A stretch of DNA of 64,000 nucleotides from Candidatus Lloydbacteria bacterium RIFCSPHIGHO2_02_FULL_50_18 (GTDB lineage Bacteria > Patescibacteriota > Minisyncoccia > Phycocordibacterales > UBA6899), in assembly GCA_001821395.1 (NCBI GenBank), contig MHLM01000012.1, forward strand, positions 64,001 to 128,000, in the 5' to 3' direction. The translations under genes and the position numbers were made by a program. The notes beneath the pieces are model-generated. The model made no database searches and had not been told where the DNA came from. It saw only the letters and a list, made by a program, of their open reading frames with translations. Below are positions 34,528 to 61,638 of this stretch, in pieces (the first letter of the stretch is position 1; every line of letters begins with the position of its first letter).

Positions 34528-34557
34528 TTTGAGCGCGAGACTTTGTTATCTTCGCTA

Positions 34558-34640
34558 TAAACCCCGCTCACCGTATATGAATACGGCTCGGGTGGTTCGC
34601 AGCTCGATGCCTCGTCTCGCATCTCAAATTTCAACATCTT
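34558..34640 (+). repeat. ~85-nt conserved intergenic element (copy D), between rpsJ and rplC; homologous to 37468..37545
   Basis: About 75% identity to copy C with a compensatory change in the hairpin ccgtatATGAatacgg vs tcatatACGAatatgc. Confidence 0.6.
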
Positions 34641-34786
34641 CTTCAGGGTGCTGAACATTTTCTCTGCAAATTTGATCGAATGTCTTACCGTTTTCCGGAA
34701 GGAAAGCGGGGGCTTCGGTTATTACGGAGCAAAGTACTATTCTTTCTTTCGTTTATTCCCATGACATTCCTACTTAAATTACGGAC

Positions 34787-37433: not shown

Positions 37434-37467
37434 AAATTTTCGCGCATTGCTTTGTTGTCATCGTCGC

Positions 37468-37545
37468 GAACCCCGCTCGTCATATACGAATATGCCTCGG
37501 GAGGTATCGCAACTCGACGCCTCGCACTGCATCGAAAATATTTAC
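37468..37545 (+). repeat. conserved intergenic element (copy C), downstream of rplB; also shares gcattgcttt module with the 45.6/49.6-kb elements
   Basis: Alignment to 34558..34640; followed by terminator 37570..37591. Confidence 0.6.
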
Positions 37546-37569
37546 TTCTTTCTAAGATTGAAGGAAAAC

Positions 37570-39546: not shown

Positions 39547-39698
39547 TCGTTTCGTTTTAAACTCGGCATACGCCGGGTTTTTTGTTGCATGTATTTGTCA
39601 CGATGGTTGATCTCAGCCTCGCGAGCTGGTGGTGTTGCGTCTCACAGCCACTTGTGTTTGTATGGTCACAGCGTTCATTTGATCACAAAGGAGAATTC

Positions 39699-40199: not shown

Positions 40200-40209
40200 G
40201 GTTTGCCGT

Positions 40210-40247
40210 GCAACACCCCGACGTGTCGGGGTGTTTTTGTTTTTTCG
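40210..40247 (+). terminator. rho-independent terminator
   Basis: caacaccccgacgtgtcggggtgtttttgtttttt. Confidence 0.75.
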
Positions 40248-40274
40248 GTAAATAAAAACTCCGCAGATGCGGAG

Positions 40275-40634
40275 TCAGTCGGGCTTGAAAAGTTTTGCAA
40301 GAAGTTCTTGCGGGAGAATGTTCGGATCGAGCGGCAATGCATCCAATTCGTCAGCCGACCCTATCGTCTCTCGCGACTCAGCGATCTCGAGTGTGCGGAC
40401 GAGGAGCAATATCAATGCAGTGATATATTGCCGGAATTCATCAGCGGTCTGCGTAGCTACCTCTTCGTGTGCACTTTTTGCACGCTCCCCGATCAGTTCA
40501 ATGAGTCCTCCAAGAGAGGGATTAATTTCTTTTAATCGCAGTACGTGAGTCGTAATGTGTGCAATGAGGGCCGGCCGTAATTGTGGAAGTTCACGGCTTG
40601 CCGCCAAAACATCCAAGGGCATGACATGTTTCAT
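40275..40634 (-). CDS. hypothetical protein
   Basis: 119 aa; its own terminator hairpin (aactccgcagatgcggagt) on minus strand at 40255..40275. Confidence 0.4.
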   Translation of the reverse strand: MKHVMPLDVLAASRELPQLRPALIAHITTHVLRLKEINPSLGGLIELIGERAKSAHEEVATQTADEFRQYITALILLLVRTLEIAESRETIGSADELDALPLDPNILPQELLAKLFKPD

Positions 40635-40795
40635 GGATACTCCATGTGGTGAACAGTGCGCTTACTCTGTTGTACGCGCGAGCGTATGTTGTGTCAAGAA
40701 ATAGCGACTGCATCCCATTTTGTTGTTGAATGGAATGTTTCATCCCGCCCCGTCTGCTCGCTTTACATCTTTTATTGTTGCGTTAGAGTAAGCAT

Positions 40796-41116
40796 ATGTT
40801 TAACTTCAATAAAAAACCGATCCCTGAAGATCGAATAATGACGTGGGAGGAGGAGGCGACCTTCCCCATTGAGCTCCAAGAAGCAGCTCTCTCGAGTTTG
40901 ATAGAAGTCGCACAGCGGCAAGGAGCATCTTCGGTCGATCTTGAAAAACAATTGAATACGATTGAGATCAAGAGACGGGTCATTCTCTGGCTCGGAACTT
41001 TTCCTGATATAGCAGAGAAGAATGCTGCGATCGAACGGGCAAATGCGGAGGGTTTGCCGCCGGAGATATTCACTACTCCGGAGTTTGTTGCTCCGGAAGT
41101 TGAGACGCTCCAATAG
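40796..41116 (+). CDS. hypothetical protein
   Basis: 106 aa; terminator 41165..41197. Confidence 0.4.
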   Translation: MFNFNKKPIPEDRIMTWEEEATFPIELQEAALSSLIEVAQRQGASSVDLEKQLNTIEIKRRVILWLGTFPDIAEKNAAIERANAEGLPPEIFTTPEFVAPEVETLQ

Positions 41117-41206
41117 GCGGTGTGCCGTGGTCTTTTGACCTTGCCACCCCTGGTCTTTGAACGAAAAACCCGCTCATTAGTAGCGGGTTTTTGTAACAGA
41201 GCTCCC

Positions 41207-41272
41207 CTATTTCTTTCCTCCCTTCTTCGGCTTCTTTGCCTCCTTCTTGATGTTGTTGTCTCCGCGTCCCAT
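41207..41272 (-). CDS. putative 21-aa lysine-rich micro-protein (MGRGDNNIKKEAKKPKKGGKK)
   Basis: ATG..TAG small ORF immediately followed on minus strand by palindromic terminator hairpin 41165..41197; paralog of 41362..41427. Confidence 0.3.
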   Translation of the reverse strand: MGRGDNNIKKEAKKPKKGGKK

Positions 41273-41361
41273 GTTGTATGCGTCTATTGATAATATTGCA
41301 CAATTATATCATGACACAGCAAAACACCACCGCACATTTGTGCGGTGGTGTTTTGCTTGTT

Positions 41362-41427
41362 GTTATTTCACTACGACCTTCTTTGGCTTTTTCTTATTTT
41401 TCTGCTGTGCATTGTTTCCTTTTGCCA
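41362..41427 (-). CDS. putative 21-aa lysine-rich micro-protein (MAKGNNAQQKNKKKPKKVVVK)
   Basis: Same length and pattern as 41207..41272; followed by palindromic terminator 41318..41353. Confidence 0.3.
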
Positions 41428-42028
41428 TGACGTATTGCTTATACTGCTAATGAACGAACGTATCTTCAGTGTAGCAGATTTTCGTCATGACATGAAAATG
41501 CCCGGTTGTACCCATGTTGATAGTGGTCATACGGACCGACCCATGCTTATTTGCAAAAACAGGGGATAACTTTCACTACGGAAGGCGCTTTGAGGCTATA
41601 ATGGTGACAACATTTTCGCACATTACGCGCTGGGTGCTTTTGGAGTAAAAAGCGAGCAGGACGTAGTGTGAGAAGATCCACAAAATGGATCCTTATGCTA
41701 TGTTCCAGCGAATGGACATATCGTTGCGGAGAAACAAAAACTTCGTTAACGGTAGAGGTTAGTCGTATATCTTTCTTATCAACATCGTGGATACGCGTTC
41801 GTTGCCTACAGCAAGGAATGTGAAAAGTGATGAAGAGAAGTACTCTGGAGCCAATTTTTATGAATCCGTTGTCGAGTGCTAAAAAGCAAAAGTAACGATC
41901 GCCAATCGTCCTCCCGCATAAAAAAGTATCTGTAGTACTTTTTATGCCAGAGTGCATGCTCATCGAAAGATATCAACGAATTGTCATAGCGCCGCGTTCA
42001 GGCAAGAACGCGGCGTTATGTATTGAGG

Positions 42029-42146
42029 ATTGAGAACATAGCAAATTTCTTTGTTGAAACATGAACATGCAAGCAAGCCGTACTCCGAGTACGGCTTGCT
42101 TGCATGTTCATGTTTCGTCTCGAACTTTGCATATGTTCTCAATCCT
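42029..42146. repeat. ~118-bp near-palindrome with 25-bp perfect inner arms (ATGAACATGCAAGCAAGCCGTACTC|GGAGTACGGCTTGCTTGCATGTTCAT)
   Basis: Inner 52-bp perfect palindrome 42061..42112 flanked by imperfect inverted arms GGATTGAGAACAT...ATGTTCTCAATCC. Confidence 0.75.
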
Positions 42147-42231
42147 AAAGGATGAATGTCCAATCGCTACTGTTGCGATTTTTTTATTATCTGGCAGTCT
42201 GAGTACAGAATGGTCTTCGAGGGAGGCAGGA

Positions 42232-42918
42232 ATGGTTCAAGCATCAGTCAACAAAGAGCAACTAGATAAGCTTCGAAATACTTATTGCGATGCAGCGCAG
42301 TACTTGGGTGTCCCACGCACAAGTGCAGAACGATGTTTCACGAAACTCGCGCAATACTATGCTGAACCGCATCGGCGCTATCATACGCTGGCTCATCTGC
42401 ACCAGTGCATGGTTGAGTTTGCGGATGTAGTGTGGCACAGTCAGGATCCTGCGCTCATTGTCATGGCTATTTTTTACCATGATATTACGTACGACGTTCA
42501 TCGCAACGATAACGAAGCGAAGAGTGCGTTGTATTGGAAATTCATTGCCCGCCATGTACTCGAAGTGAAGAACGAAGGATTCATCGCCGAGGTCGCCCGA
42601 TTGATCGAACTTAGCGGCGAACATCGTACGGACCCTGTCACTGATCCTGATGCCGCGCTCTTCCTCGACGTCGACATGTCGATTCTAGGAGCTGACGCAC
42701 CGGAGTACGACGCATATGCGGCCGCAGTGCGACAGGAGTATGCGCACTGCAGTGACGATGAATGGGCGTTTGGTCGCGTTGCGAAGTTCCTTGATCCGAC
42801 CTTGTGTGAGGACAGAATATTTCTCACTGATATCTTTCGTCAAAAATATGAAGAAAATGCGCGCGCAAACCTGATGGAAGAGCGTTGCCGCTATCAAAAA
42901 AACCTACCGCTCGCATGA
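42232..42918 (+). CDS. HD-domain metal-dependent phosphohydrolase
   Basis: RYHTLAHLH and FYHDITYD (H..H / HD) motifs; start at MVQASVNK downstream of the palindrome; terminator overlaps stop (42903..42930). Confidence 0.55.
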   Translation: MVQASVNKEQLDKLRNTYCDAAQYLGVPRTSAERCFTKLAQYYAEPHRRYHTLAHLHQCMVEFADVVWHSQDPALIVMAIFYHDITYDVHRNDNEAKSALYWKFIARHVLEVKNEGFIAEVARLIELSGEHRTDPVTDPDAALFLDVDMSILGADAPEYDAYAAAVRQEYAHCSDDEWAFGRVAKFLDPTLCEDRIFLTDIFRQKYEENARANLMEERCRYQKNLPLA

Positions 42919-43017
42919 GCGGTTTTTTCTTGACAAAGAGTATTTGTTGTGGAGAATCAAGAACGGCAGTCCCAATAGGGAAAGCCGTTCTTTTACAACC
43001 AACCGAAAGGATAACTC

Positions 43018-43866
43018 ATGAGCGAGATAGCCGAAAAAGTAAACCCATCGACCGATGGGCAGATGAAAGACCTCACCAGCGTTCTGGTGACCGCCATGCC
43101 CGATCACGAAAAATTCCCACGGGAACAAATCGAGTATTGGATGAAAAACAAGCGCTTGCTCGCGGCAAAGGTGCGCGCAGTGCTTGAGGGGGCCCCACGT
43201 GGCCTTGGGCAAACAACGCAAGAAGTGCTGCAATCCTGGGAGCGATTTTATCGCGAGATACTCAAAATAAAAGTCGACTTCTCGGATATCGATACTCCGC
43301 CACGTTTTAGTGAATTTAAGGCCATTATTCCCGTGATCTCATCTATTTCCGCAGAAGAAATTGTCGGTTTACTCACGAAAAATTTCAATCATGAATTTAG
43401 TTTGAGAGACTTTCAGTGCAACTTAGATGAGCTCTCGCACTTGCGTCCGGAGGGGCACTATGCGGTTTTGCACCGAGGTACTCGAATGCCCGATCTCGAT
43501 ATGCAGATCACCAGGCAGCGAGCTACTGAGGGTGTGGTCGCGAGGTACACTTGCGTACATCCTCCCGTCGATGCTTCTTCATTTATGAATCCAAGGGAGT
43601 ACATCCTTTTTGCGGCGTTCAACGTCTGGATGACATCTGGTCGTCACTCGTCACCATGGTTCGACTACGACATTGCTGGCACTAATTTTATTGGCGAGAG
43701 AGCGCTCCCTGGAACCGCGTTCCCACAGATGGATGCTTTTGATCGACCACTGGCCGCGTGTTGCCACTCTAGCAATAACCATGAGTGCCACATTGAACAC
43801 CCTTGTGGCTTTGAAAATTCCTACGGGCGACTTGTGAAAGTACTTTCTTCCTTGCGCATCGCATAA
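43018..43866 (+). CDS. hypothetical protein; shares a local motif with ORF 50374..51195 (possible paralog)
   Basis: RPEGHYAVLHRGTRMPD vs RPRCTYVVVHRGGMEPD; terminator 43871..43906. Confidence 0.5.
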   Translation: MSEIAEKVNPSTDGQMKDLTSVLVTAMPDHEKFPREQIEYWMKNKRLLAAKVRAVLEGAPRGLGQTTQEVLQSWERFYREILKIKVDFSDIDTPPRFSEFKAIIPVISSISAEEIVGLLTKNFNHEFSLRDFQCNLDELSHLRPEGHYAVLHRGTRMPDLDMQITRQRATEGVVARYTCVHPPVDASSFMNPREYILFAAFNVWMTSGRHSSPWFDYDIAGTNFIGERALPGTAFPQMDAFDRPLAACCHSSNNHECHIEHPCGFENSYGRLVKVLSSLRIA

Positions 43867-43899
43867 CGTGTTTATCACCACCGAGAAATCGGTGGTTTT

Positions 43900-44970
43900 T
43901 TATATGATGAGCATTCCGTCGCCGAATGAGTAGAAGCGGAATTTTTCCCTTATGGCGATGTCGTAGAGCGCGAGGATGTCGCGCTTCGCTCTTTTGTGTT
44001 TGAGGAGTGCGTCGACCAAGAGCATGAGTGATGAGCGAGGGACGTGGAAGTTCGTAATAAGCCCATCTGCAATCTTGAATTCGTACGGCGGGTAGATAAA
44101 TATATTCGTAGGCTTAGAACATTGCTCAACACTCCAAGGTTCCACCTTGGAGTGTTGGATTGCAGCGGATTCGAGGGTACGCATGGCGGTAGTGCCGACG
44201 GGGATGATGGGAATACCCGCCGCTTTTGCACTATTTATTTTTTTTGCGCTTTCCTTTGTGATATCGAGATACTCCGCAAAAAGTTTTTTACTTTTGAAAT
44301 TTTGTTCATCAATCGGCGCAAAGGTACCCGCACCTACATGAAGCGTGACCTCCGTACGCGTGATGTGTTCACGTTTCATTTTTTCGAGTAAGCGATCGGT
44401 GAAATGGAGCGACGCCGTTGGTGCTGCAATTGACGCGGGATATTTCGCGAGAATACTTTGGTATTTTTCACGCAATGTGTGCTCGGACATCGTATTGCCC
44501 TTGATATATGGGGGTATTGGCGTCACACCCTCTTTCTCGAGCAAACTCCAAAGGCTGCCTTTGGATACACTGGGATTGAAAAAGAAAAATTGCTCTTCTT
44601 GTCTTTCGACCTCAAGGTGCGCCCCTGACTTAAAGAAGAGTTTGGCACCGGGAAGGATCTTGCGGTCGACCACTCCTTTAATAGAGATGTCGCCGGGACG
44701 GAATTCATTCATCATGAGAAGCACCTCGATCTTGCCGCCCGTTTCTTTGGAAAGCCACAATCGGGCAGGAACGACCTTTGTATCATTAAAGACAAGCAGG
44801 CTGGGTTTGGGGAGATATTGGTCAATATTCCGGAAAACATCAAAATGCACCTTATCAGTTTTCGTATCGTAGACGAACAATCGAGCGGAATCTCGCGGAG
44901 AAGCGGGCTCATTGGCGATAAGCCCCTCAGGGAGGTGGTAGTTATAATCATCGAGAGAGATCATGTGCAC
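43900..44970 (-). CDS. queA: S-adenosylmethionine:tRNA ribosyltransferase-isomerase
   Basis: LPEGLIANEPASPRDSARL, PIPPYI, AAPTASLHFT, HVGAGTF, TNFHVPRSSL, YSFGDGMLI motifs. Confidence 0.9.
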   Translation of the reverse strand: MHMISLDDYNYHLPEGLIANEPASPRDSARLFVYDTKTDKVHFDVFRNIDQYLPKPSLLVFNDTKVVPARLWLSKETGGKIEVLLMMNEFRPGDISIKGVVDRKILPGAKLFFKSGAHLEVERQEEQFFFFNPSVSKGSLWSLLEKEGVTPIPPYIKGNTMSEHTLREKYQSILAKYPASIAAPTASLHFTDRLLEKMKREHITRTEVTLHVGAGTFAPIDEQNFKSKKLFAEYLDITKESAKKINSAKAAGIPIIPVGTTAMRTLESAAIQHSKVEPWSVEQCSKPTNIFIYPPYEFKIADGLITNFHVPRSSLMLLVDALLKHKRAKRDILALYDIAIREKFRFYSFGDGMLII

Positions 44971-45035
44971 ATGCTATCAGGTGAAGCAATATGGGCAAGC
45001 TTTTCTATGTTTAGCAACGTATTTTCGACTTTTTT

Positions 45036-45056
45036 TGTCAAGGTTTAACCTTGACA
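45036..45056. repeat. 21-bp perfect palindrome TGTCAAGGTTtAACCTTGACA (second copy of 24159..24179)
   Basis: Same arms and same gtattttc...ttttttt 5' flank as copy 1. Confidence 0.6.
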
Positions 45057-45179
45057 ATTTTAAGTGGTGCGTTTGCGGCTACGATAATATTCCACAGATA
45101 ATCCACAGAGTTATCAACAGCAAAATGTAATAATTATGGCAAAAAATAACCCCAACCCTTCGGTCGGGGTTGGGGTAGG

Positions 45180-45419
45180 TCAGTCGACCTCTGTGATGGT
45201 AAACTTTTCGCTGCAGGAGTAGAGGAAGCCCTCCTCGAGTCCCCAACAGAAAAAGAACATCCCGTCGCCCTCCTTGGGGGGCACCCCATCCTTATTCGAA
45301 ACGGTCGTTACTCCACCTTCGCGAGTGACTTTGACGTCAACGTAGGACCTGGTGGAACTTAAATCTTCCATAAATTCTGCGTGCTCATCTTCGGTGAGTA
45401 TCGCTGTGGCTATTTTCAT
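45180..45419 (-). CDS. hypothetical small protein
   Basis: 79-aa ORF upstream of queA on same strand. Confidence 0.4.
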   Translation of the reverse strand: MKIATAILTEDEHAEFMEDLSSTRSYVDVKVTREGGVTTVSNKDGVPPKEGDGMFFFCWGLEEGFLYSCSEKFTITEVD

Positions 45420-45589
45420 TGTTGCTCCTTCGGTTTGGTTTTTGAGTCTGACATGACATTAGCACGAAAAATATTTATGTCAATAATTTGATATTCCTAT
45501 ATTTTATAACATATTTTGACTTAATTCGAACGCCACACCTAGGAAGTGAGGGAAATAGGTCTTTTGGGAGACTTCACGGGCTTGAAATA

Positions 45590-45720
45590 CGCACCTGGGA
45601 GCGAGGTATTGCTTTTTGAGGGGCTACGGACCGCGGCGGCGGGAGTTTGAGGAAAAAGTCAGCAGACTTTTATCCGTGCCCTCAAAAAGCAATGCCGAGC
45701 GTATACATTGACTTCTTTGG
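45590..45720. repeat. palindromic intergenic repeat element (copy A) upstream of rpsS; related to 49590..49760
   Basis: Internal inverted arms gcgaggtattgctttttgagggg / ccctcaaaaagcaatgccgagcg; aligns to reverse complement of copy B. Confidence 0.65.
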
Positions 45721-45856
45721 GCTGTTTAAGTAGTATCTAGCACAAGGTATTTCAAATAGTTTCACTCTACGCCGTGGGAGGATCAGGGGCGTTGGGAAAT
45801 CTATATCGAAAAATCGCCAAATCGCCCAAAAGGCTTAGAAAAACTTTTATAAACAT

Positions 45857-46201
45857 ATGACAAGATCACTAAAAAAGGGACCATACGTGTACGAGAAATT
45901 GCTCAAGAAGATCGAGGGCAAGAAGCCGGATGTTGCCGGTGTAATTAAGACCTGGGCGCGTGCGTCGCAGATCTCACCTGAGATGGTGGGGCATACCTTC
46001 GGTGTGCACAATGGCAAGGACTTCATTGAGGTAAAGGTCAGCGAGGAGATGGTTGGACATCGTCTCGGTGAATTCTCAGGAACCCGCAAATTCTATCGTC
46101 ACGGTGGAAAGATGCAAAAGGACCTTGAGGCTAAACAGAAGGAAGCCGAGATCTCTGCAGCAAAGGCCGCAAAGGGAGCTGATGCCGCTAAGAAAAAATA
46201 A
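45857..46201 (+). CDS. rpsS: 30S ribosomal protein S19 with Lys/Ala-rich C-terminal tail
   Basis: KKGPYV...[24 protein letters not shown]. Confidence 0.9.
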
Positions 46202-46210
46202 TTCATTACT

Positions 46211-46666
46211 ATGGAAATCACCGCTAAACTCTCTCAGTATCGTCAGGCTCCCCGCAAGGTCCGGCTTGTTGCTACCCTCTTAAAGGGTATGACTGTCGAA
46301 AACGCGCTTGTTGAACTTTCTCATCGCACAAAACGTGTTGCCCCGATCTTTCACAAGCTCGTCTTGTCTGCCGTTGCAAATGCAAAGATGCAAGGACTCG
46401 ACGAGAAGACACTCATCGTTAAAGGCATCCGTGTCGACAAAGGACCGGTGCTGAAACGTTCCCGCCCTCGCGCACAAGGTCGCGCATTCCCGATTCATAA
46501 GCATACGAGTCATATCGTAGTAACGCTTACCGATGGAGCAGTCGCCGACACAAAGACAACAACAACCGCAACCGCCGACACAAAGACCGTAAAGGTAGCT
46601 GTTGCAAAAAAGGTCGTTGCAAAGAAGTCCGTTACCAAGAAAAAAGTAGCCGCCACGGCGAAGTAA
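46211..46666 (+). CDS. rplV: 50S ribosomal protein L22 with Thr/Lys-rich C-terminal tail
   Basis: L22 core plus ~45-aa low-complexity extension. Confidence 0.9.
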   Translation: MEITAKLSQYRQAPRKVRLVATLLKGMTVENALVELSHRTKRVAPIFHKLVLSAVANAKMQGLDEKTLIVKGIRVDKGPVLKRSRPRAQGRAFPIHKHTSHIVVTLTDGAVADTKTTTTATADTKTVKVAVAKKVVAKKSVTKKKVAATAK

Positions 46667-46676
46667 TTTTTATCCT

Positions 46677-47381
46677 ATGTCACATCATGTACATCCATAT
46701 GCACATCGGTTAGGAATCCTCCGTGATTGGAAGTCGCGTTGGTTCGCCGATCGTGGTCAGTATCAAGAATATTTAAAAGGTGACGTTCTTTTGCGTGAGT
46801 TTCTTGAGAAGAAGCTTCGCGGCTCACACGTCTCCGAAATTGTCATGGAGCGCAATGACAAAACTTGGAAGATCCTCATCAAGACTGCACGACCGGGACT
46901 CATTATCGGTCGCAGCGGAGAGGGCGCAGTAAAATTGAAGAATGACGTACTTTCGAAACTCGCCCGCTTAAAGATGAAGCATCCGAAAGACATCAAGATC
47001 GAGATAGAGGAAGTGCGCAGTCCTGAGTCGAATGCGGCGATAGTCGGTCAGATGACTGCCGAGGGACTTGAGAAGCGTATGCCATTCAAGCGTGTGATCA
47101 AGCAGTTGCTTGAGAAGGTGATGGCGAATCGCGACGTTAAGGGAGCACGCATCGAACTTTCCGGACGTTTGGGTGGTGCAGATATGTCTCGCCGCGAGTT
47201 TGTGAAGGCAGGCAATATTCCACTGCAGACCATTCGTGCCGATGTTGATTTTGCACGAGAGAAGGCTTTCCTTCCTTACGGCATCATCGGTATTCAGGTG
47301 TGGATATACAAGGGTGAAGTGTTTGCCGAGAAGGCAAAGGCTGTGGTCGCACCAAAGGCACAGGGGGCTCATCACTCATAA
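46677..47381 (+). CDS. rpsC: 30S ribosomal protein S3
   Basis: HPYAHRLGI, KH and S3_C regions. Confidence 0.9.
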   Translation: MSHHVHPYAHRLGILRDWKSRWFADRGQYQEYLKGDVLLREFLEKKLRGSHVSEIVMERNDKTWKILIKTARPGLIIGRSGEGAVKLKNDVLSKLARLKMKHPKDIKIEIEEVRSPESNAAIVGQMTAEGLEKRMPFKRVIKQLLEKVMANRDVKGARIELSGRLGGADMSRREFVKAGNIPLQTIRADVDFAREKAFLPYGIIGIQVWIYKGEVFAEKAKAVVAPKAQGAHHS

Positions 47382-47394
47382 TCAGAACAGGCTT

Positions 47395-47820
47395 ATGTTA
47401 TTTCCAAAAAAAGTAAAACATCGTAAATGGCAGTCGGATCGCTGGAACCGCAAGAAGAATCGCATCGAGTCGCGCGGAACGACCCTCGCCTATGGTGCAT
47501 ATGGATTGAAGGCGGAGACCGAGTCACGCATCACTTCAAATCAGATCGAAGCTGCACGCCGCGTATTATCGCGCAACGTCGGAAAAACAGGACGCGTATG
47601 GATCCGCGTATTCCCGGATAGACCATATACACAGAAAGGAGCCGAAGTTCCGATGGGTAAGGGTAAGGGAGATCCTCAGGGGTTTGTCGCAGAAATACTT
47701 CCGGGTCGCATCATCTTTGAGATCGACGGAGTGACGTTTGTGCAGGCAAAGGAAGCAATTAGAAAAGCCGGGTCGAAACTTGCAGTCCTCTCACGTATGG
47801 TTACTCGCGATATTGTCTAA
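47395..47820 (+). CDS. rplP: 50S ribosomal protein L16
   Basis: MLFPKKVKHRK start inside ORF 47236; RVFPDRPYTQKGAEVPMGKGKG. Confidence 0.9.
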   Translation: MLFPKKVKHRKWQSDRWNRKKNRIESRGTTLAYGAYGLKAETESRITSNQIEAARRVLSRNVGKTGRVWIRVFPDRPYTQKGAEVPMGKGKGDPQGFVAEILPGRIIFEIDGVTFVQAKEAIRKAGSKLAVLSRMVTRDIV

Positions 47821-47830
47821 TCCCATCTAT

Positions 47831-48022
47831 ATGAAAATCACAGAAATACGAAAGATGTCGGACAAAGAAATCGAGAAGGCACTCGTTGAACAGCGCGCAG
47901 AGGTCAAGCAATTCCGTTTTGATATTACGGGAAGCAAGGCAAAAGATCTGAAAGCAGGTGCAAATGCAAAGAAGGCCGTTGCGCGTCTCTTGACCGAACT
48001 TTCATCTCGGAACGAGAATTAA
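47831..48022 (+). CDS. rpmC: 50S ribosomal protein L29
   Basis: MKITEIRKMSDKEIEKAL...; 63 aa. Confidence 0.85.
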   Translation: MKITEIRKMSDKEIEKALVEQRAEVKQFRFDITGSKAKDLKAGANAKKAVARLLTELSSRNEN

Positions 48023-48024
48023 TC

Positions 48025-48333
48025 ATGACGACTATGGAAACCAAAACAATACAAACGAAAAAGCAGTCGATGGTCGGGGTCGTTGTGTCCGACAAGATGG
48101 ACAAAACACGAGTCGTCCTGGTTACTCGCTACGAGCAGCATCCAAAGTATAAGAAGTACGTGAAGCATCACAAACGCTACAAGGTGCACGATGCAAAAAA
48201 TGAGTTCAAGGTCGGGGACAAAGTGCGTATCGAAACATGTGCGCCACTTTCAAAGCATAAGGCCTTCACCGTGGTCGAAAAGGTCGGAACTCAGGACGTT
48301 GAACAGTACATGAAGACGCGCGGAGCAGCATAA
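48025..48333 (+). CDS. rpsQ: 30S ribosomal protein S17
   Basis: GVVVSDKMDKTRVVLV...HDAKNEFKVGDKVRI. Confidence 0.9.
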   Translation: MTTMETKTIQTKKQSMVGVVVSDKMDKTRVVLVTRYEQHPKYKKYVKHHKRYKVHDAKNEFKVGDKVRIETCAPLSKHKAFTVVEKVGTQDVEQYMKTRGAA

Positions 48334-48345
48334 TCAGACAAATAT

Positions 48346-48714
48346 ATGATACAACCACGCACAATAGTAAAGATCGCTGATAATTCCGGAGGAAAGGTCG
48401 GACGTATCTTTAAGGTTCTCGGCGGTTCGAAGAAGCGCTATGCGGGTCTCGGTGATCTCGTCGTGCTTTCTGTACAGACCGCAGAACCACGTAAGGGAGT
48501 GAAGAAGGGCGAGGTCTGCCGCGCGGTCGTCGTGCGCGTAGCAAATGCTTTTCGCCGACATGACGGATCGTACATCCGTTTTGACGAGAATGCGGTCGTG
48601 CTGATCGATGCAAAGAATGAGCCTCGTGCCGGTCGCGTTTTTGGCCCGATCCCTCGTGAGATCTCAGAAAAGGGATTCAAAAAGATTATTTCTTTGGCCC
48701 CTGAGGTCGTTTAA
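48346..48714 (+). CDS. rplN: 50S ribosomal protein L14
   Basis: MIQPRTIVKIADNSGGK... Confidence 0.95.
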   Translation: MIQPRTIVKIADNSGGKVGRIFKVLGGSKKRYAGLGDLVVLSVQTAEPRKGVKKGEVCRAVVVRVANAFRRHDGSYIRFDENAVVLIDAKNEPRAGRVFGPIPREISEKGFKKIISLAPEVV

Positions 48715-48727
48715 TTTCAATCGGCTT

Positions 48728-48961
48728 ATGCATATAAAAAAAGGAGACGAAGTAGTGATCCTCTCGGGAGATGATAAGGGGAAAAAGGGTAAGGTCGCTC
48801 ATGTGATGCCGAAGCTCGGCACCGCGGTCGTCGAGGGCCTCAACATGCGAAAGAAGCATCAGCATGCTCGTCAGGATGGAAAGAAGGGGCAAGTCATCGA
48901 AATAGCCATGCCGCTCCGTGTGTCCAAGTTGGCATTGGCAGACAAGCCAAAGAAGAAATAA
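48728..48961 (+). CDS. rplX: 50S ribosomal protein L24
   Basis: MHIKKGDEVVILSGDDKGKKGKV KOW motif; start inside ORF 48608. Confidence 0.9.
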   Translation: MHIKKGDEVVILSGDDKGKKGKVAHVMPKLGTAVVEGLNMRKKHQHARQDGKKGQVIEIAMPLRVSKLALADKPKKK

Positions 48962-48971
48962 TTGAACAACC

Positions 48972-49583
48972 ATGAACGTCCCAACAATAAAAGAAAAGAT
49001 AAAGTCCGCATATCCAAAGCTGAAAGAGAAGCATGGATATAAGAACGTCATGCAGGCACCTAAGGTGGAGAAGGTCATCATTTCCGTGGGCACCGGTAAG
49101 ATGTCCCGCAATGACAAGAAGAAGAATGAGTTCGTCGCGAGCCGGCTTGGTATGATCACCGGACAGAAGGCGTCTGCACGAAAGGCAAAACAATCGATCG
49201 CTTCGTTCAAGCTTCGTGAGGGTGATGTCATCGGACAGATGGTCACGATGCGCGGGAGCAAAATGATGGGTTTCCTCGACAAGCTTGTGAACGTGGCTAT
49301 CCCGCGTACGCGCGACTTCCGAGGATTCCGTGCCGCCTCGATCGATGCAATGGGGAATTTCACCCTTGGTATCAAGGAGCACACGATCTTCCCTGAGACT
49401 GCAGATGAAGACCTGAAAGACGTCTTCAGCCTCGCACTCACTGTCGTTCTTTCAACGAGGAACAAGGAGGAGTCCATTGATTTCTTGGAGCACCTTGGTT
49501 TCCCGTTCCGCGAAACTGCGAACGAGGGAAAGAAAAAGAAAGAGAAGAAGGTTGACGCCCCAAGTAAGAAGTGGAAGAAGTAA
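48972..49583 (+). CDS. rplE: 50S ribosomal protein L5 with Lys-rich C-terminal tail
   Basis: L5 family core; C-terminal EGKKKKEKKVDAPSKKWKK. Confidence 0.9.
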   Translation: MNVPTIKEKIKSAYPKLKEKHGYKNVMQAPKVEKVIISVGTGKMSRNDKKKNEFVASRLGMITGQKASARKAKQSIASFKLREGDVIGQMVTMRGSKMMGFLDKLVNVAIPRTRDFRGFRAASIDAMGNFTLGIKEHTIFPETADEDLKDVFSLALTVVLSTRNKEESIDFLEHLGFPFRETANEGKKKKEKKVDAPSKKWKK

Positions 49584-49589
49584 TTACCG

Positions 49590-49760
49590 CTCAGCATTGC
49601 TTTTTGAGAGCACGGATAAAAGTCTGCTGACTTTTTCCACCGCAAGGGTACTTCCAATTTCATACTCCCTATGGTCGTTGAAATTTAGGTCGCTCACACC
49701 TCGCACTGCCCGGCTCCGTAGCCTCTCAAAAAGCAATACTTCGCTCCCAGGTTCGTTTTT
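49590..49760. repeat. palindromic intergenic repeat element (copy B) downstream of rplE, with ~75-bp internal insert sharing cctcgcactgc / aaatttcaac modules with the 34.6/37.5-kb elements
   Basis: Reverse complement aligns to 45596..45700; insert aligns in pieces to copies C/D. Confidence 0.65.
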
Positions 49761-49837
49761 CGAGCGGGGATCCGAAAAGACTTATTGTCTTCGCCCAAGA
49801 GGATCGGAGTTCGCGTTTGAAATACAAAACCCGCTCA

Positions 49838-49868
49838 TTTGAGCGGGTTTTGTTCTTTTGAGAATAAG
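49838..49868. terminator. palindromic rho-independent terminator (near-identical hairpin to 41165..41197)
   Basis: caaaacccgctcatttgagcgggttttgttc. Confidence 0.7.
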
Positions 49869-49939
49869 CTCAATGAGGCCCTTTACTTTTTTGAAAAAAA
49901 GCAGAATCTGAGAAGAGTTGTTTTTATTGAGAGGTAGAG

Positions 49940-50308
49940 ATGCAGATCCGCTTTCGGGTTCGCGAACTCGCTTTGGCAATTCGGGAATTTCTCGTCGGTG
50001 TCTTTGTCTTCTTCCGGCGGTCAGTGAAAAGAAGGGATGAAGTACGATATTGCTTCATGTGCCAAGAGTACGGCCATCCGCTTACTAAAGTATCGTTCAT
50101 GATCCGCACAGAAGCGCGGAGGGGGGCAAAGAAGGAGGCGCCATTCTCGGTCATGGAACTCCACGTGTGCAGTATGCATCATCCTGACAAGGACGTCGTC
50201 GGGGCAGACCTGTCCGAGGAAACACGATCATTTCTTCGAAACAATGATGCTGCCGCAGCGTGTGTCTACTATTACCATGATCCCGATCATGTTTTCCGCC
50301 TCGGATAA
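49940..50308 (+). CDS. hypothetical protein
   Basis: 122 aa; its 3' end plus terminator is duplicated at 51215..51288. Confidence 0.4.
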   Translation: MQIRFRVRELALAIREFLVGVFVFFRRSVKRRDEVRYCFMCQEYGHPLTKVSFMIRTEARRGAKKEAPFSVMELHVCSMHHPDKDVVGADLSEETRSFLRNNDAAAACVYYYHDPDHVFRLG

Positions 50309-50373
50309 GAGGTGGTTTTTTTATACTCCGTACGTTATCCAAAGGTAATTGGACAAAGTAGCAAAAATGCAAT

Positions 50374-51195
50374 ATGGTCAGTACGGAAAAGCTAGCCCCG
50401 GGCTCCATCGTGGGAATATTCTTTGAGAAGGAACAGTCCATGCAAACAGATAAGACAGACTCGGCTTCTGCAACGCCGGAACAACTCGCGATGCTTACTG
50501 GCGAGTTCGCTCTGGCTCTGGCTAAGGCAAAGCCATCCGCCGCTCTCATGCAGCATCTGCTCCGAAGCAGGGTGGCAACACGGAAGATGATCATCGCGGC
50601 CCTATCGACGCAGGGAAGAATCAGTCACACGATTGATCCTCGCCTCGTGCAGTGTCAAAAGCTATGGGAGAAACTCGGAGTGGTGCTCGACTGCATGGAC
50701 AATCTTGTCATGCCGGAAATCCCATCCGGTTGGCGCGGTATCGCCATCATCCCACCACTCACAAATGAAGCACTCCTCGCTCTTTGCAAAAAGCACTTTC
50801 CGATATGGTCGAAACGCGATGGCCTCGACAATATCTTGAGAGAACAAAATCGACCACGATGCACCTACGTCGTCGTCCATCGTGGTGGTATGGAGCCGGA
50901 TAAAGAGCATCGTAATAAGAGTCATGATGATGCGGTCAATGAAGGTTTGTATTTTTTGACGCTGAAGGAGCGTATCTGCATCGAGCTTCTTCATTTCATA
51001 AAAACAGGCAAGCATTTTGATGTTAAGGGGACCATGACAGTCACATCCTCGCTGACGATGGGTGGCGATGCGTTTAATGTGTATTGGAGTTCGCATATTC
51101 AGACGTTCATTGTGGATGGTTGCCGTACGGTGACTTCGTACTCGACGAATGGGCTTCGTCAGGCCGTTTTCTTTGGATTGAAGCCTTACCGTTGA
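50374..51195 (+). CDS. hypothetical protein (possible paralog of 43018..43866)
   Basis: 273 aa; shared ..VVHRGG.EPD.. motif. Confidence 0.5.
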   Translation: MVSTEKLAPGSIVGIFFEKEQSMQTDKTDSASATPEQLAMLTGEFALALAKAKPSAALMQHLLRSRVATRKMIIAALSTQGRISHTIDPRLVQCQKLWEKLGVVLDCMDNLVMPEIPSGWRGIAIIPPLTNEALLALCKKHFPIWSKRDGLDNILREQNRPRCTYVVVHRGGMEPDKEHRNKSHDDAVNEGLYFLTLKERICIELLHFIKTGKHFDVKGTMTVTSSLTMGGDAFNVYWSSHIQTFIVDGCRTVTSYSTNGLRQAVFFGLKPYR

Positions 51196-51214
51196 TTGCT
51201 GAGCCGACACTTGT

Positions 51215-51288
51215 GCCGCAGCGTGTGTCTACTATTATCATGATCCCGATCATGTTTTCCGCCTCGGTTAAGAGGCGGTTTTTTTATA
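51215..51288 (+). repeat. non-coding duplicate (~96% identical) of 50252..50330 (3' end of ORF 49940 + terminator)
   Basis: gccgcagcgtgtgtctactatta(c/t)catgatcccgatcatgttttccgcctcgg(a/t)taagagg(t/c)ggttttttta; no start codon in copy 2. Confidence 0.75.
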
Positions 51289-51317
51289 AGACAAATTTTT
51301 GACTTTCCTGAAAGTTA

Positions 51318-52367
51318 ATGTATGGTGAGCACTGGTTTTGTACTTTTATATCTAACCTGAGGAAAGACATGGACATTAATACGTCTGACCCCGGTGACAA
51401 TGGACGACGGGGTATCGATAGGGGTTTGAGCGACAGGCGCGAGTATGACCTTGCCAGGACCCTCATTGGAACGTTGCTGTTCGTTAAGTTATATCGAGCT
51501 GCAGGCGCTCTCAAGTTCCTGAAGGCGCTCAAGGTTCTTGGTCCTCTCATGATGGTGGTCTCCGGAATTTTCACGGGAGAGATCTATTCTCTCGTCATGA
51601 AAACCTCCCTTGTTGTGGGGCTGCTATTTTCTCTTGCGGTGCATGAGCTCGGTCACTATGTTGCGACGAAGCGATGCGGCCTCCGCGCGGCGTGGTGGCT
51701 CTTCATTCCATTCGTCGGAGCGTGGATGGAAGCGCCGGATTTTCGTTCCCGCAATGACGAGGCGTGCATCGCTTTTGGTGGTCCTTTCATCGGAGGGATA
51801 TTTTCTCTGATATTGTTCTGTGCATGGTTGGTACTACCGCTGTCCAATGAATGGGGAAATATTCTCTTCACCATAGCTTTCCTTTCGACGATGTTGAATC
51901 TCTTCAATATGATCCCGCTTTCGCCGCTTGATGGCGGAAGGATCACCGAAGGGGTGAGTATCTGGTTTCGCGTCGCAGGGTTCGTTGTATTGATCACGCT
52001 TTCTCTCTATACCGCTCAAGCATCGATGGCTCTTGTGTGGTTGCTGGTGATGAGTGAAGTTCGGATGTCCGCACGATTGAGGTTTGTCACGGCGGCGCTC
52101 ATGCTGATCCTTATGGCGGTACTCATTATACTGGGGTATCACGGGCCTTCCGCTCTTGAAGATTGGTGCTATTTTGCGGTCGGCGTATGGCTGCTCTCCG
52201 CTTTTTATAAGCGTTGGAAGAATCCGCCCCCTCGGCATGATCATCGCAATGTCAGATTGACTCCAGCGGAGCGAAAAAAATGGAAACGTTCGTACTGTGG
52301 GCTCCTTCTTTTCCTCATCGTATTGTTTGCCGCATTTTTCCCTCACATGAGCAAACTTGCTTTTTGA
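51318..52367 (+). CDS. M50-like membrane zinc metalloprotease
   Basis: AVHELGHYVA HExxH and NLFNMIPLSPLDGG motifs; multi-TM; terminator 52371..52400. Confidence 0.65.
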   Translation: MYGEHWFCTFISNLRKDMDINTSDPGDNGRRGIDRGLSDRREYDLARTLIGTLLFVKLYRAAGALKFLKALKVLGPLMMVVSGIFTGEIYSLVMKTSLVVGLLFSLAVHELGHYVATKRCGLRAAWWLFIPFVGAWMEAPDFRSRNDEACIAFGGPFIGGIFSLILFCAWLVLPLSNEWGNILFTIAFLSTMLNLFNMIPLSPLDGGRITEGVSIWFRVAGFVVLITLSLYTAQASMALVWLLVMSEVRMSARLRFVTAALMLILMAVLIILGYHGPSALEDWCYFAVGVWLLSAFYKRWKNPPPRHDHRNVRLTPAERKKWKRSYCGLLLFLIVLFAAFFPHMSKLAF

Positions 52368-52474
52368 GTTGAATAACTCGCCGATAATCTCGGCGAGTTT
52401 TTTGTGCATTGTTGAATTGCATACTGTTGAGAGCAGTACTATACTTTATGTACATTAATATATATCCTCTCGTC

Positions 52475-55219
52475 ATGTCCTCAACAAAAAGGTTTTTTTC
52501 ACTGTGCATGTTTGGCATATTCCTCCTTCCCTCACTCGCCGCTGCTGACACCACCATCTCCTCCAACATCACCACGAATCAAACCTGGACCACGGCAAGC
52601 AGTACATACATCGTCACCACCGGTATTGCGATCAACGCAGGTGTCACCCTCACCATCAACCCCGGAGTGATCGTGAAGTTCAGCGGGATCATGTCCGGCA
52701 TCACCGTGAATGGGACGTTAAACGCCCAAGGAACCGCACTTGCACCGATATACTTCACCTCATACAAAGATGACACCGTGAATGGTGATACGAATGGCGA
52801 TGCGACCTCAACAACCCCAGCCGGGGGCGACTGGTTTTGGTTCTCCATTCCCGCGGGCGGAGCAGCAACGATCGACAACGCGATCATCCGCTATGGCGGC
52901 AGTTTCAATACTGCGCTGTTCTATAATAACGGAGGTAACCTCACCCTTGCGAACTCCGAAGTCGCATCCAGTTCCAAGTATGGCATCTGGACATATTCCG
53001 GCATATCAACTATCGCTTCTTCCACCATCGATCACAACGCGAGCTACGGTATCTATCATACGGGAGGCACCACTACCGTTGCCACGAGTACGATCCGCGA
53101 TCACAGCACCTATGGCTTCTCCACCCAGAGCGGAACTGGAAATCTCATCCTCACCAACAATATCTTTTCCGGTAATCTTCAAGGTGGAGGACTGGTGAAC
53201 TTGGCCGACAGTGCAAACGTGACCCATACGAACAACAGTGCAACGGGGCAAGGAAAGGGTGGCATGGTCATCTATGGTTCTCCCAATAAGGCACAGACAT
53301 GGGGAGCAGACCCGCTCTTCCCGTATATTATCTCAACGACAACAGGGTCGGTCACCGTGAGTACGTATGCCATCACCCTCAATCCCGGTGCGATCATCAA
53401 ATTTGAAGGAACAACCGCAGGGTTTGCGGGCAATTCAGGCACCTTCACTGCCGCGGGAACTACACAATCTCCCGTATATTTCACCTCCATCAAGGACGAC
53501 ACCGTGGGTGGCGACACCAATGGGAATGGCACGGGTACCACTCCATCTGCGGGGGATTGGGATGGTCTCATGTCCCAGAACTATAGCAATCTCACGTTGA
53601 ACAATACCGTGATCCGCTACGGTGGCTCAAAGATGCTCTATGCCAACGGTGTGAACAGCGTCATCAACCTATTCAACTCAGAAGTTGCCAGCAGTTCAAG
53701 TGCGGGAATCTATAGTGATGCAGGAACAGTGAATGCCACCGGTACGAGCATTCACGACAATCGCTACGGCTATTATCACGGCAATGTCCAAGGCAATAGC
53801 ATTGCCCACATTGCCAATGCCGGCAACACCATCTATCGCAATAGCACCTATGGTATTTATAACAATGGAACCGCCCTCGTGAATGCCGAGCAGGTATACT
53901 GGCCGGCGACAACAACGGGAGCGACGATGAATGGGCCGTATAGTACAAGCACCAACCCAGGGGGGCATGGAGATGCTGTGCTCCCCACATACATCGACTT
54001 TGATCCTTGGCTCTCTACCGTGTCAGGAAATATCGCAACGAATACCACGTGGACTGCTTCGAGTACATATGTCATTGATGGAACGCTCACGGTGAATGCG
54101 GGGACGACACTCACGATTCCTGCAGCTACGGTGGTGAAGTTTGCCAATGCAACCTCAAAGATCAGCGTCTCGGGGAGCTTGGTTGCAGATTCTGCAGCGT
54201 CTTCCTCACGAATATATTTCACGTCAATCAAGGATGATGCGGTGGGAGGGGATACCAATGGAGATGGGGGTGCGACTTCACCTGCTGCGGGAGATTGGGA
54301 TGGGATCAAAGTGAATGCGGGAGGCGTTGCAACACTGAACTTCATTTCTGCTCGCTATGGAGGAAGTGGTGGGCCCATGCTTTGGAACTATGCAGGAACG
54401 TTGGATCTTAATAATTCAGAAATTGCGAGCAGTAGTAATACGGGAATCTTCCATTCCTCGGGTGCCACGCAATTAATAGTTCGAGCTTGTGATATTCACA
54501 ACAATAATTATGGCATATTTGTTGACGACAGCTCGCTTGTGACAATCGGCAGCAACAATATTCATGGCAATGTTGTGGGAGTAAATGATAATACTTTTTT
54601 TGGGATTGATATTAGATATAACTATTGGGGTGATGCAAGTGGCCCATATAATTCTGTCTATCACCCGACTGGGACCGGTGATACCATCGTTGAGAATGCG
54701 TTTACGCTTGTTTCTCCATGGTTAGACAGGGTACATTATTTGTATTTCTTAAACCACAATTTGGTTACTTCGATTACCAGTGGAGTATTGGATTGGAATT
54801 GGTTCAACGGCACATCTACTTATGCGACGGCTTGGTATGCAGGAGTTAACACATGGAACACATATGGAAATTCGGTTGGAGGAGTTACTTTTGCAACAAG
54901 TACCACGGCAACATCCTCAGCTGATTTACTCGTTTTGGACATGGCTAGCTCATCTAGTGATTTATTCTATGCCATCTACGACCCCTTTGTTACTCCTACG
55001 GAAATTAAATTTAACCCTTATTATATGAACACTGCAACTGCTAATATAAGGCAAATGACCACAACTCATGAACTTGGTCATGCCCTAGGGCTTTGGCACA
55101 GTTATATAAACAACATCATGATTGCATCCCCAGCTTCAACTACTGGTCAGGTTTCACTGGGCACTCAAGATATGTTGGATTACGATTATTGTTGGGTGAG
55201 TCATAATTGTGGGATATAA
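52475..55219 (+). CDS. large secreted protein: signal peptide, three ~270-aa parallel beta-helix-like super-repeats, C-terminal metzincin (HELGHALGLWH) protease domain
   Basis: Repeated YFTS(I/Y)KDD.V.GDTNG..G.T.PAGDW and I(R/I)YGGS...NSE(V/I)ASSS blocks; HEXXHXXGXXH at residues ~880; start at MSSTKRFFSLCMFGIFLLPSLAAA within ORF 52409. Confidence 0.7.
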   Translation: MSSTKRFFSLCMFGIFLLPSLAAADTTISSNITTNQTWTTASSTYIVTTGIAINAGVTLTINPGVIVKFSGIMSGITVNGTLNAQGTALAPIYFTSYKDDTVNGDTNGDATSTTPAGGDWFWFSIPAGGAATIDNAIIRYGGSFNTALFYNNGGNLTLANSEVASSSKYGIWTYSGISTIASSTIDHNASYGIYHTGGTTTVATSTIRDHSTYGFSTQSGTGNLILTNNIFSGNLQGGGLVNLADSANVTHTNNSATGQGKGGMVIYGSPNKAQTWGADPLFPYIISTTTGSVTVSTYAITLNPGAIIKFEGTTAGFAGNSGTFTAAGTTQSPVYFTSIKDDTVGGDTNGNGTGTTPSAGDWDGLMSQNYSNLTLNNTVIRYGGSKMLYANGVNSVINLFNSEVASSSSAGIYSDAGTVNATGTSIHDNRYGYYHGNVQGNSIAHIANAGNTIYRNSTYGIYNNGTALVNAEQVYWPATTTGATMNGPYSTSTNPGGHGDAVLPTYIDFDPWLSTVSGNIATNTTWTASSTYVIDGTLTVNAGTTLTIPAATVVKFANATSKISVSGSLVADSAASSSRIYFTSIKDDAVGGDTNGDGGATSPAAGDWDGIKVNAGGVATLNFISARYGGSGGPMLWNYAGTLDLNNSEIASSSNTGIFHSSGATQLIVRACDIHNNNYGIFVDDSSLVTIGSNNIHGNVVGVNDNTFFGIDIRYNYWGDASGPYNSVYHPTGTGDTIVENAFTLVSPWLDRVHYLYFLNHNLVTSITSGVLDWNWFNGTSTYATAWYAGVNTWNTYGNSVGGVTFATSTTATSSADLLVLDMASSSSDLFYAIYDPFVTPTEIKFNPYYMNTATANIRQMTTTHELGHALGLWHSYINNIMIASPASTTGQVSLGTQDMLDYDYCWVSHNCGI

Positions 55220-55230
55220 CATTGAAAACC

Positions 55231-61438: not shown

Positions 61439-61638
61439 AAAACGAGCAATTTGGGCGCACTACAGGTTTGTCATCGGGTATGACCCCACGTCAACGTACG
61501 AGAGTACGTCTCGTGAGGATCATCCCTCGACGCACCCGTATTGCATCCCAAATTGTTCGTTTTTGTTTTGTCTTAAAATCATGAACATTTGGTTGTCGCG
61601 AATATCGTTGTAGCCGGCAAGTAGATCAAAACACAAAA

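Follow-up and report, generated by a model that had tools for sequence, protein, structure and literature searches.

What are two inverted copies of one palindrome doing at the two edges of a block of ribosomal protein genes? The question arises in a stretch of 64,000 nucleotides (the window) of contig MHLM01000012.1 from Candidatus Lloydbacteria bacterium RIFCSPHIGHO2_02_FULL_50_18, a member of the Patescibacteria or Candidate Phyla Radiation (CPR), in which one element, A, lies upstream of rpsS and a second, B, follows rplE. An earlier note on this DNA took A and B for mosaic repeats of the kind known as miniature inverted-repeat transposable elements (MITEs), and proposed that they had either created insertion sites in the ribosomal protein superoperon or been adopted by it as processing or termination signals. 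We find that they belong to a repeat family, here called family 1, that is neither a signal of the ribosomal operon nor the cause of its breaks. Our favored reading, which we hold with slightly more belief than doubt, is that A and B represent a non-autonomous palindromic repeat family, dispersed and structured, which is common to CPR/Patescibacteria and resembles REPIN or ERIC.

Two inverted copies of one structured palindrome

Element A (45584-45701) and the reverse complement of element B (49588-49761) are 89% identical over 118 aligned columns, in agreement with the earlier note, which had described the two as reverse complements. A repeat search of the window resolves this similarity into two pairs of inverted arms, 45580-45645 with 49700-49765 (66 nt, 83%) and 45651-45701 with 49588-49638 (51 nt, 96%). 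The elements measure 118 and 174 bp, and each is closed by arms of about 20 bp. These terminal inverted arms are built on a shared module, as had been claimed: GYATTGCTTTTTGAG occurs four times in the window with at most one mismatch, every time inside A or B, and the 6 matches found with at most two mismatches compare with 0.21 expected and with none of 100 shuffled sequences reaching 6. The ends read CGCTCRGCATTGC ... GCAATRCCTCGCTC.

Both elements fold far beyond shuffled sequences on both strands (z from -3.6 to -6.9). One strand of each is the preferred folded strand, the plus strand for A (-55.4 kcal/mol, versus -45.1 on the minus strand) and the minus strand for B (-67.3 kcal/mol, versus -50.4 on the plus strand). 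When a covariance model of the family-1 core is run over the 64 kb, A (75 bits) and B (41 bits) are its sole matches. The parts of the two elements and the signals beside them are as follows.

45545..45583, plus strand: weaker A/B homology past the closing stem P1, on one side only, with a second AGCGAGG-like box (alignments)
45584..45701, plus strand (the better-folding or 'rev' strand): element A, short form of family 1 (inverted match to B; covariance-model match at 45616-45687, 75.4 bits, E 2.6e-17; fold)
45605..45624, plus strand: 5' arm of P1 of A, GGTATTGCTTTTTGAGGGGC, pairing with 45678-45696 (direct reading; fold)
45625..45647, plus strand: P3 module of A, UAC / GGA / CCGC-GGCG-GCGG / GA / GUU (family alignment, in which P3b and P3a pairs covary)
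45651..45675, plus strand: hairpin 1 of A, GG-AAAAAGUC-AGCA-GACUUUU-A(bulge)-U-CC (in the family, both bases vary in each of the ten pairs; 99% of cells paired)
45678..45696, plus strand: 3' arm of P1 of A (direct reading; fold)
45708..45736, plus strand: promoter-like site of rpsS, TTGACT-17-TAGTAT, outside the repeat (kept in relatives L025, L157 and L160-L163, including those without A)
49588..49761, minus strand (the better-folding strand): element B, long form of family 1 (covariance-model match, 40.9 bits; fold)
49614..49638, minus strand: hairpin 1 of B (within the 51-nt arm, 96% complementary to A)
49639..49693, minus strand: 55-nt insert of B, lying between hairpin 1 and P3 and folding into a hairpin of its own, CAATTTCA...TGAAATTG (alignment of A with B)
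49694..49720, minus strand: diverged P3 module of B, including 'cctcgcactgc' at 49699-49709 (alignment)
49824..49853, plus strand: intrinsic terminator of the rpsS-rplE unit, downstream of B and outside the repeat (13-bp stem, then a T run)

The insert that had been noticed in B is present, but it is a self-contained hairpin of 55 nt rather than about 75, and it recurs in other genomes, in a copy at locus L017 and in the copy at the A site of relative L160. The sequence 'cctcgcactgc', which the earlier note had assigned to the insert, lies outside it in the diverged P3 of the family-1 core, where one inserted nucleotide and a few changes set it apart from the L160 homologue. The other proposed common module, 'aaatttcaac', occurs at chance level (9 matches with at most one mismatch versus 8.0 expected).

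Element A is placed between a divergent open reading frame (ORF) of 79 amino acids and rpsS, and ends 6 nt before the promoter-like site. The homology at 45545-45583 beside it shows no promoter-like enrichment. The onset of B is 5 nt past the rplE stop codon (49581-49583). In a search for intrinsic terminators neither A nor B has a T run behind it, and the Rfam leader and terminator models match only at 49824-49853. Two independent Logan short-read contigs (L005 and L006) stop exactly at 49638, the inner edge of the 51-nt arm that A and B share; six contigs from other samples are 100% identical to the window and therefore offer no strain variants with empty sites.

Family 1 is spread across the CPR

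A metagenome scan with the two-arm pattern returned 31 stretches, 22 of which are true members, each with different flanks. A 21-nt core, ATAAAANTCTGCTGANTTTTT, is present in all 22 members as well, and one further copy that was found through this core carries compensating changes in both arms. An exact scan for the core in genome contigs, with one genome per species, yielded at least 118 stretches, nearly all from CPR taxa. The matches listed include Saccharibacteria, Paceibacterota, Nomura-, Wildermuth-, Doudna-, Campbell-, Yanofsky-, Taylor-, Vogel- and Lloydbacteria, WWE3 and Minisyncoccia, and the few listed from other phyla cover only the A/T-rich hairpin. The covariance model finds 126 matches over 100 of these loci (686 kb), with two or more copies in about a quarter of the 8-kb loci. 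At least 14 copies lie in the sampled stretches of a single metagenome-assembled genome (MAG) of Saccharibacteria, CAZFHL01, and eight of these can be aligned as a sharp-ended unit of about 128 nt whose flanks are unrelated.

The copies at unrelated loci and in many genomes, sharply bounded and in long and short forms, bear out the earlier description of a dispersed palindromic mosaic repeat. The same note had reasoned that copies confined to its four sites in the ribosomal cluster and conserved in distant relatives would imply a regulatory RNA; family 1 is instead widespread at unrelated loci of CPR genomes. Inverted pairs of family-1 copies 45-130 nt apart are frequent (L050, L052, L069, L082, L097 and L105) and recall REP doublets.

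Neither A nor B has a match in Rfam 15, whether at gathering scores or at E values up to 10, and the same is true of the copies in other genomes. No such repeat is described for CPR bacteria in the literature searched, which omits most subscription journals, and we provisionally regard family 1 as new to the literature and to Rfam.

Structure of the conserved core

The arms of family 1 are wholly different between lineages yet always complementary, and it is the interior that is conserved. On the better-folding strand the 5' arm of P1 is followed by a junction, YNC-GSA, and by hairpin P3b with four pairs and the loop GACG or a variant of it. Next come GA-GNR, whose GNR pairs with YNC to form P3a, then a short linker, hairpin 1, and the 3' arm of P1. 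The hairpin with the GACG loop is carried by a 3-bp helix, with a GSA/GA internal loop between the two. Hairpin 1 consists of two variable pairs, AAAAAnUC, the loop AGCA, GAnUUUU, a bulged A, a U, and two partner bases.

The interior is a three-way junction kept by compensatory changes across the superphylum, as is looked for in a structured RNA motif. Standard pairs fill 97.4% of cells, whereas shuffles give 75.5% and slid partners 30-57%. Both bases vary in each of the 15 pairs, with a covariation score of 0.494 versus 0.118; these pair counts are inflated, as the alignment was fitted to the structure model and the copies are related and non-independent. P3a, which was scored separately, is paired in 97, 90 and 79% of cells at its three positions, and its middle pair occurs in all four Watson-Crick types (GC 43, UA 21, AU 17, CG 15). 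The variable pair of hairpin 1 is complementary in 120 of 127 sequences. A hammerhead-like or kink-turn junction was considered and rejected on direct reading, since conservation does not extend to the CUGANGA-like string and the 3-nt bulge is missing from the GSA/GA loop.

Strand preference and tRNA genes

Of 127 elements, 101 fold better on the preferred strand, the mean difference being 6 kcal/mol. At pair 103-131, G-U is seen 23 times versus 7 non-pairs. When each of the 53 clusters of variable arms is counted once, there are 110 purine-purine mismatches versus 20 pyrimidine-pyrimidine ones, and 40 G.U versus 20 A.C. Nearly a fifth of the copies (23/126) lie within 250 nt of a tRNA gene, and in 20 of these 23 the preferred strand is co-oriented with the tRNA; 15 are located just downstream of it.

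Short-armed core copies occur on the tRNA strand directly downstream of or between tRNA genes at several loci (L106 at 3700-3800, L066, L067, L095, L100, L115 and L128), and the L106 copy fills the spacer between tRNA-Val and tRNA-Arg. Such copies would belong to tRNA precursor transcripts. As for a tmRNA or another known RNA at the tRNA-linked copies, ARAGORN and Rfam find tRNAs only.

Some of these features would fit each copy being an expressed small structured RNA gene or module on the better-folding strand, maintained by selection and multiplied by gene duplication rather than by selfish spread. We consider this explanation unlikely, though not negligible, and the same grade applies to its particulars, in which A would be a small RNA upstream of rpsS, B an RNA convergent with and antisense to the 3' end of rplE, and the tRNA-linked copies RNAs released by RNase P and 3' processing. 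In its favor are the covariation, alongside loop and junction bases that are invariant throughout the superphylum, the co-orientation with tRNA genes and the L106 spacer copy, and a strand asymmetry that extends to the purine-purine pairs of the arms and possibly to tandem G.A pairs in family 1a (see below). The homology between A and B also reaches about 40-70 nt further on the 5' side of the preferred strand only. However, orientation relative to protein-coding neighbors is about random (50 versus 41 on one side, 47 versus 55 on the other), and the preferred strand has no excess of promoter-like sites upstream of it (41, versus 46 for the other strand), for which reason a dedicated promoter was rejected. 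Moreover, the near-identical, sharp-ended copies in the tiny genome CAZFHL01 look like proliferation, and copies are dispensable at orthologous sites.

Ends and neighbors of family-1 copies

Very often, a family-1a copy opens 3-10 nt beyond the stop codon of a gene that runs convergent to the preferred strand. The earlier note had suggested looking for target-site duplications, and none were seen. The CGCTC flanks are constant at every family-1a copy; the ends CGCTC...CGCTC read on the preferred strand as GCGA...GAGC, and on direct reading they can be a stem extension through tandem G.A pairs rather than a target duplication. Duplications are likewise lacking in the Saccharibacteria subfamily. 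Among 191 proteins encoded next to the copies at the sampled loci there is no recurrent family and no transposase or other associated gene; the largest cluster has three members, and all are housekeeping proteins.

These observations bear most directly on the proposal of a classic MITE, namely a deletion derivative of a DNA transposon moved in trans by a transposase that recognizes the terminal inverted repeats and leaves target-site duplications. Part of the comparison stands. Family 1 is short and non-coding, has the size and the terminal inverted arms of a MITE, occurs in long and short forms, and varies in presence between relatives; its many copies lie in both orientations at unrelated loci, as is evident in the Saccharibacteria MAG, the source genome having 2 copies in the 64 kb. 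The rest does not. In family 1 the arms vary by lineage and the interior is conserved, the reverse of a MITE, and this interior covaries and is strand-specific. Variable target-site duplications are not found, as the CGCTC flank that might be taken for one is always the same and can extend the stem, and no transposase sharing its terminal repeats appears among the 191 neighbors of the sampled loci. We regard a classic MITE as improbable.

Relatives and the split ribosomal cluster

The window derives from the Rifle aquifer, and its RplE is 100% identical to the RplE of Candidatus Lloydbacteria bacterium RIFCSPHIGHO2_01_FULL_49_22. Eight relatives were compared, with RplB 72-87% or RplE 76-92% identical to that of the window. 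In all eight the cluster is broken after rplB and after rplE, with different cargo genes in each, and the breaks must therefore pre-date the elements. Several of these relatives lack elements at the breaks rplB|rpsS and rplE|rpsN, contrary to the idea that the repeats created the insertion sites. That the repeats mark every internal break point was also overstated: the rpsN-proximal end has no element, and one copy of a second palindromic family (family 2, described below) lies at secY|adk. The S10-spc cluster is split in the whole Lloydbacteria-like clade (loci L156-L163; the gaps in the window are 37434-45856 and 49584-57379). Since the genes in the gaps differ in every relative, we regard the gaps as hot spots of gene turnover. 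The spacer between rpsJ and rplC is present in all four relatives that cover this junction (L156-L159), where it is 146-405 nt long and not conserved.

The comparison of empty with filled sites called for by the earlier note could be made in part: the A site is filled in four genomes (the window, L025, L160 with the long form and its 55-nt insert, and L162) and empty in three (L157, L161 and L163), and an exact empty site was not recovered. The promoter-like site and the leader hairpin of rpsS are kept at filled and empty sites alike. At the B site, the family-1 long form of the window is replaced in L160 and L161 by related palindromes that keep the P3 module and have another hairpin 1, in L162 by a non-palindromic stretch, and in L163 by a different palindrome. 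Copies have thus been gained, lost or replaced between close relatives. Their similarity does not follow the orthology of the loci, and the closest copy to A (94%) is at another locus in another genome.

Ribosomal protein leaders and autoregulatory RNAs keep the same operon position inside the transcript, and this was found neither for A nor for the B site nor for the family-2 element D. An operon-specific regulatory RNA, that is, a leader, attenuator, processing or termination signal, including long-range pairing of A with B like that of rRNA processing stems, is to us barely credible. It would account for the location of A and B at the edges of the rpsS-rplE unit, for their complementarity over about 118 nt, and for the presence of B in the 3' untranslated region (UTR). 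The relatives already contradict it, however. A is upstream of the conserved promoter-like site and missing from L157, L161 and L163, B has a separate terminator behind it, and elsewhere the family-1 element adjoins unrelated housekeeping genes; the suggestion that the operon had adopted the repeats as processing or termination signals likewise finds no support. A processing stem formed by A and B was rejected as well, given the promoter-like site between A and rpsS and the non-complementary pairs of relatives, L160 and L162 each combining an A-type copy with a B-site sequence that does not complement it.

The 5' leader of rpsS itself contains a hairpin, ACGCCGTGGGAGGATCAGGGGCGT, at 45769-45792 that is identical or nearly so in all seven related genomes, including those without A. 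It has no Rfam match and is a candidate ribosomal protein leader or autoregulatory site.

The inverted orientation of A and B around a block of 3.9 kb, together with cargo that is different in every relative between the fragments of the cluster, raises a further alternative, in which the elements would be recombination sites, either inverted repeats that flip the rpsS-rplE block or attC-like folded-strand cassette ends that explain the variable cargo. The defined folded strand with its bulged base and the many family-1a copies starting 3-10 nt after a stop codon also speak for it. Against it, the block is oriented like its neighbors in all relatives, orientation relative to genes is about random in the wider family, the ends on direct reading have no core of the RYYYAAC/GTTRRRY type, no integrase or recombinase recurs next to the copies, and two copies in 64 kb make no array. 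We find this very doubtful, more so than a MITE. Each of the three readings, the classic MITE, the attC-like site and the operon-specific signal, conflicts with one or more of the features tested.

Likeness to known repeat systems

By description, the closest known kinds appear to be ERIC, REP/REPIN, Correia and RPE elements. ERIC (or IRU) elements of Enterobacteriaceae and Vibrionaceae are imperfect palindromes of about 127 bp, intergenic, often transcribed, and present in either orientation in tens to hundreds of copies. An insert of about 70 bp, placed internally at fixed positions, makes their long forms; they extend over a wide range of genera, and they are not known to have a transposase of their own. 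Family 1 is similar in size, palindromy, intergenic placement, occurrence of many copies in either orientation, long forms made by an insert, breadth of host group and absence of a transposase among its sampled neighbors. It has no apparent sequence relation to ERIC, however, and differs in its varying arms, its superphylum-wide invariant three-way-junction interior, its strand asymmetry and its link to tRNA genes.

REP/REPIN sequences span 20-40 nt, have a head of the GTAG type and come with a RAYT gene particular to each family, strand-specific recognition of the hairpin being the proposed mechanism. Like them, family 1 is extragenic, hairpin-forming, multi-copy and non-autonomous and occurs in inverted pairs, but its unit is 110-175 nt with two internal hairpins in a three-way junction. 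No RAYT or IS200-like gene is present among the 191 neighbors searched.

The Correia elements (CREE/NEMIS) of Neisseria have conserved 26-bp terminal repeats and a TA duplication, and the RPE elements of Rickettsia insert in frame into genes. Both resemble family 1 as palindromes of about 100-160 bp that spread through small or host-associated genomes, that have two size classes by virtue of an internal segment, and that are co-transcribed with their neighbors. In contrast to family 1, neither is known to have a cross-phylum core kept by compensatory changes. Finally, integron attC sites are variable-length imperfect palindromes right after a stop codon, conserved in structure rather than in sequence, of which one strand folds and bulged bases mark the strand, and in this they are like family 1. 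Their interior sequence is variable, whereas that of family 1 is conserved, and family 1 is without R''/R' core sites, arrays, or an integrase among its neighbors.

A probable dispersed repeat with a core that may be read as RNA

If A and B are copies of a dispersed repeat, as we favor, the core would be a recognition module that is read on a single strand, most likely as RNA and possibly as single-stranded DNA, by a factor conserved across CPR bacteria. That factor, or recombination between copies, might spread or exchange the elements, which would occupy intergenic gaps of a ribosomal protein cluster that had already been split in the ancestor of the clade. B would be transcribed within the rplE 3' UTR on its less favored strand, as a hairpin of about -50 kcal/mol between stop codon and terminator, where it may serve as a barrier or as a processing site at the 3' end. 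A is outside the rpsS transcript and probably does nothing for rpsS.

Several points weigh against this reading. Copy number in the source genome is known for the 64 kb only and amounts to two. All four filled A sites have an upstream block containing queA, so that the filled and empty states are confounded with the upstream genes and the exact empty site is not recovered. No viral copies were found; 12 viral matches, of 22-25 bits, cover the A/T-rich hairpin only, and an origin of family 1 from phages was rejected for this restriction. To these are added the lack of target-site duplications, the lack of a recurrent gene among the 191 neighbors, and the inflation of the pair counts, all given above. 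Finally, core conservation over a whole superphylum exceeds what selfish repeats usually show, and could mean that every copy is a functional RNA.

A second proposal is more tentative. The core may be an undescribed, CPR-specific structured RNA that was at first a small RNA, transcribed together with tRNA genes and the target of a protein shared across the CPR, and the dozens of arm-bearing copies per genome would be its proliferated derivative. We give it distinctly less than an even chance, and hold just as tentatively its corollary that the proliferated copies are analogous to small-RNA-derived dispersed repeats or are the single-strand recognition site of a new mobilization system.

Genomes of CPR/Patescibacteria are about 1 Mb in size, streamlined, and generally thought to be poor in repeats, and to our knowledge almost nothing has been reported on their non-coding RNA. 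Here is an element with several to dozens of copies per genome and a core kept from Saccharibacteria to Parcubacteria and WWE3. The CPR therefore hosts either an abundant selfish element that persists through the whole radiation or an unrecognized RNA with a conserved protein partner, and both outcomes are testable in Saccharibacteria, which are cultivable and genetically tractable. In practical terms, such repeats fragment short-read assemblies and can pass for signals specific to an operon. As to the ribosomal cluster, its breaks are not products of the repeats but long-standing hot spots of gene turnover.

A second palindromic family

The earlier note had linked A and B to palindromic elements at rpsJ|rplC and distal to rplB. 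The family-1 covariance model matches neither of these, which, together with a third copy, form a separate family.

34533..34645, plus strand: family-2 element C, at rpsJ|rplC (alignment with D; nhmmer E 4e-32; no match to the family-1 model)
37441..37551, plus strand: family-2 element D, between the rplB stop codon and a terminator at 37570-37597 (alignment; profile search)
61456..61556, plus strand: family-2 element E, third copy, right after secY (nhmmer E 1.2e-6; alignment and fold)

Elements C and D are about 75% identical, and their closing stem covaries (GCGAGAC/GTCTCGC versus GCATTGC/GCACTGC). D is absent from four relatives, in which the terminator comes straight after rplB. Element E is found at an ordinary junction, secY|adk, and because this third copy sits after secY, family 2 is not tied to break points. 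Each of the three elements starts at or a few bases from a stop codon, and each folds better on the antisense strand. Weaker family-2 copies are present in L087 and L157.

Other repeats in the window

An operator-like palindrome, TTGTCAAGGTTWAACCTTGACAA, occurs at 24158-24179 and at 45036-45057, one of them just upstream of queA. A similar sequence, ATGTCAAGACTTAGTCTTGACAT, is found twice upstream of rpsS in L161 (at about 6335-6360 and 6545-6570). Two perfect palindromes, at 42056-42116 and 29296-29343, have arms of 30 and 24 nt with 0-1 nt between them, and the former overlaps the start of the ORF at 42061-42918. Direct repeats are located at 55201-55322/56197-56318 (122 nt, 89%) and at 50251-50325/51214-51288 (75 nt, 96%). 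The 75-nt repeat is a duplicated gene 3' end with its terminator, behind two adjacent hypothetical genes.

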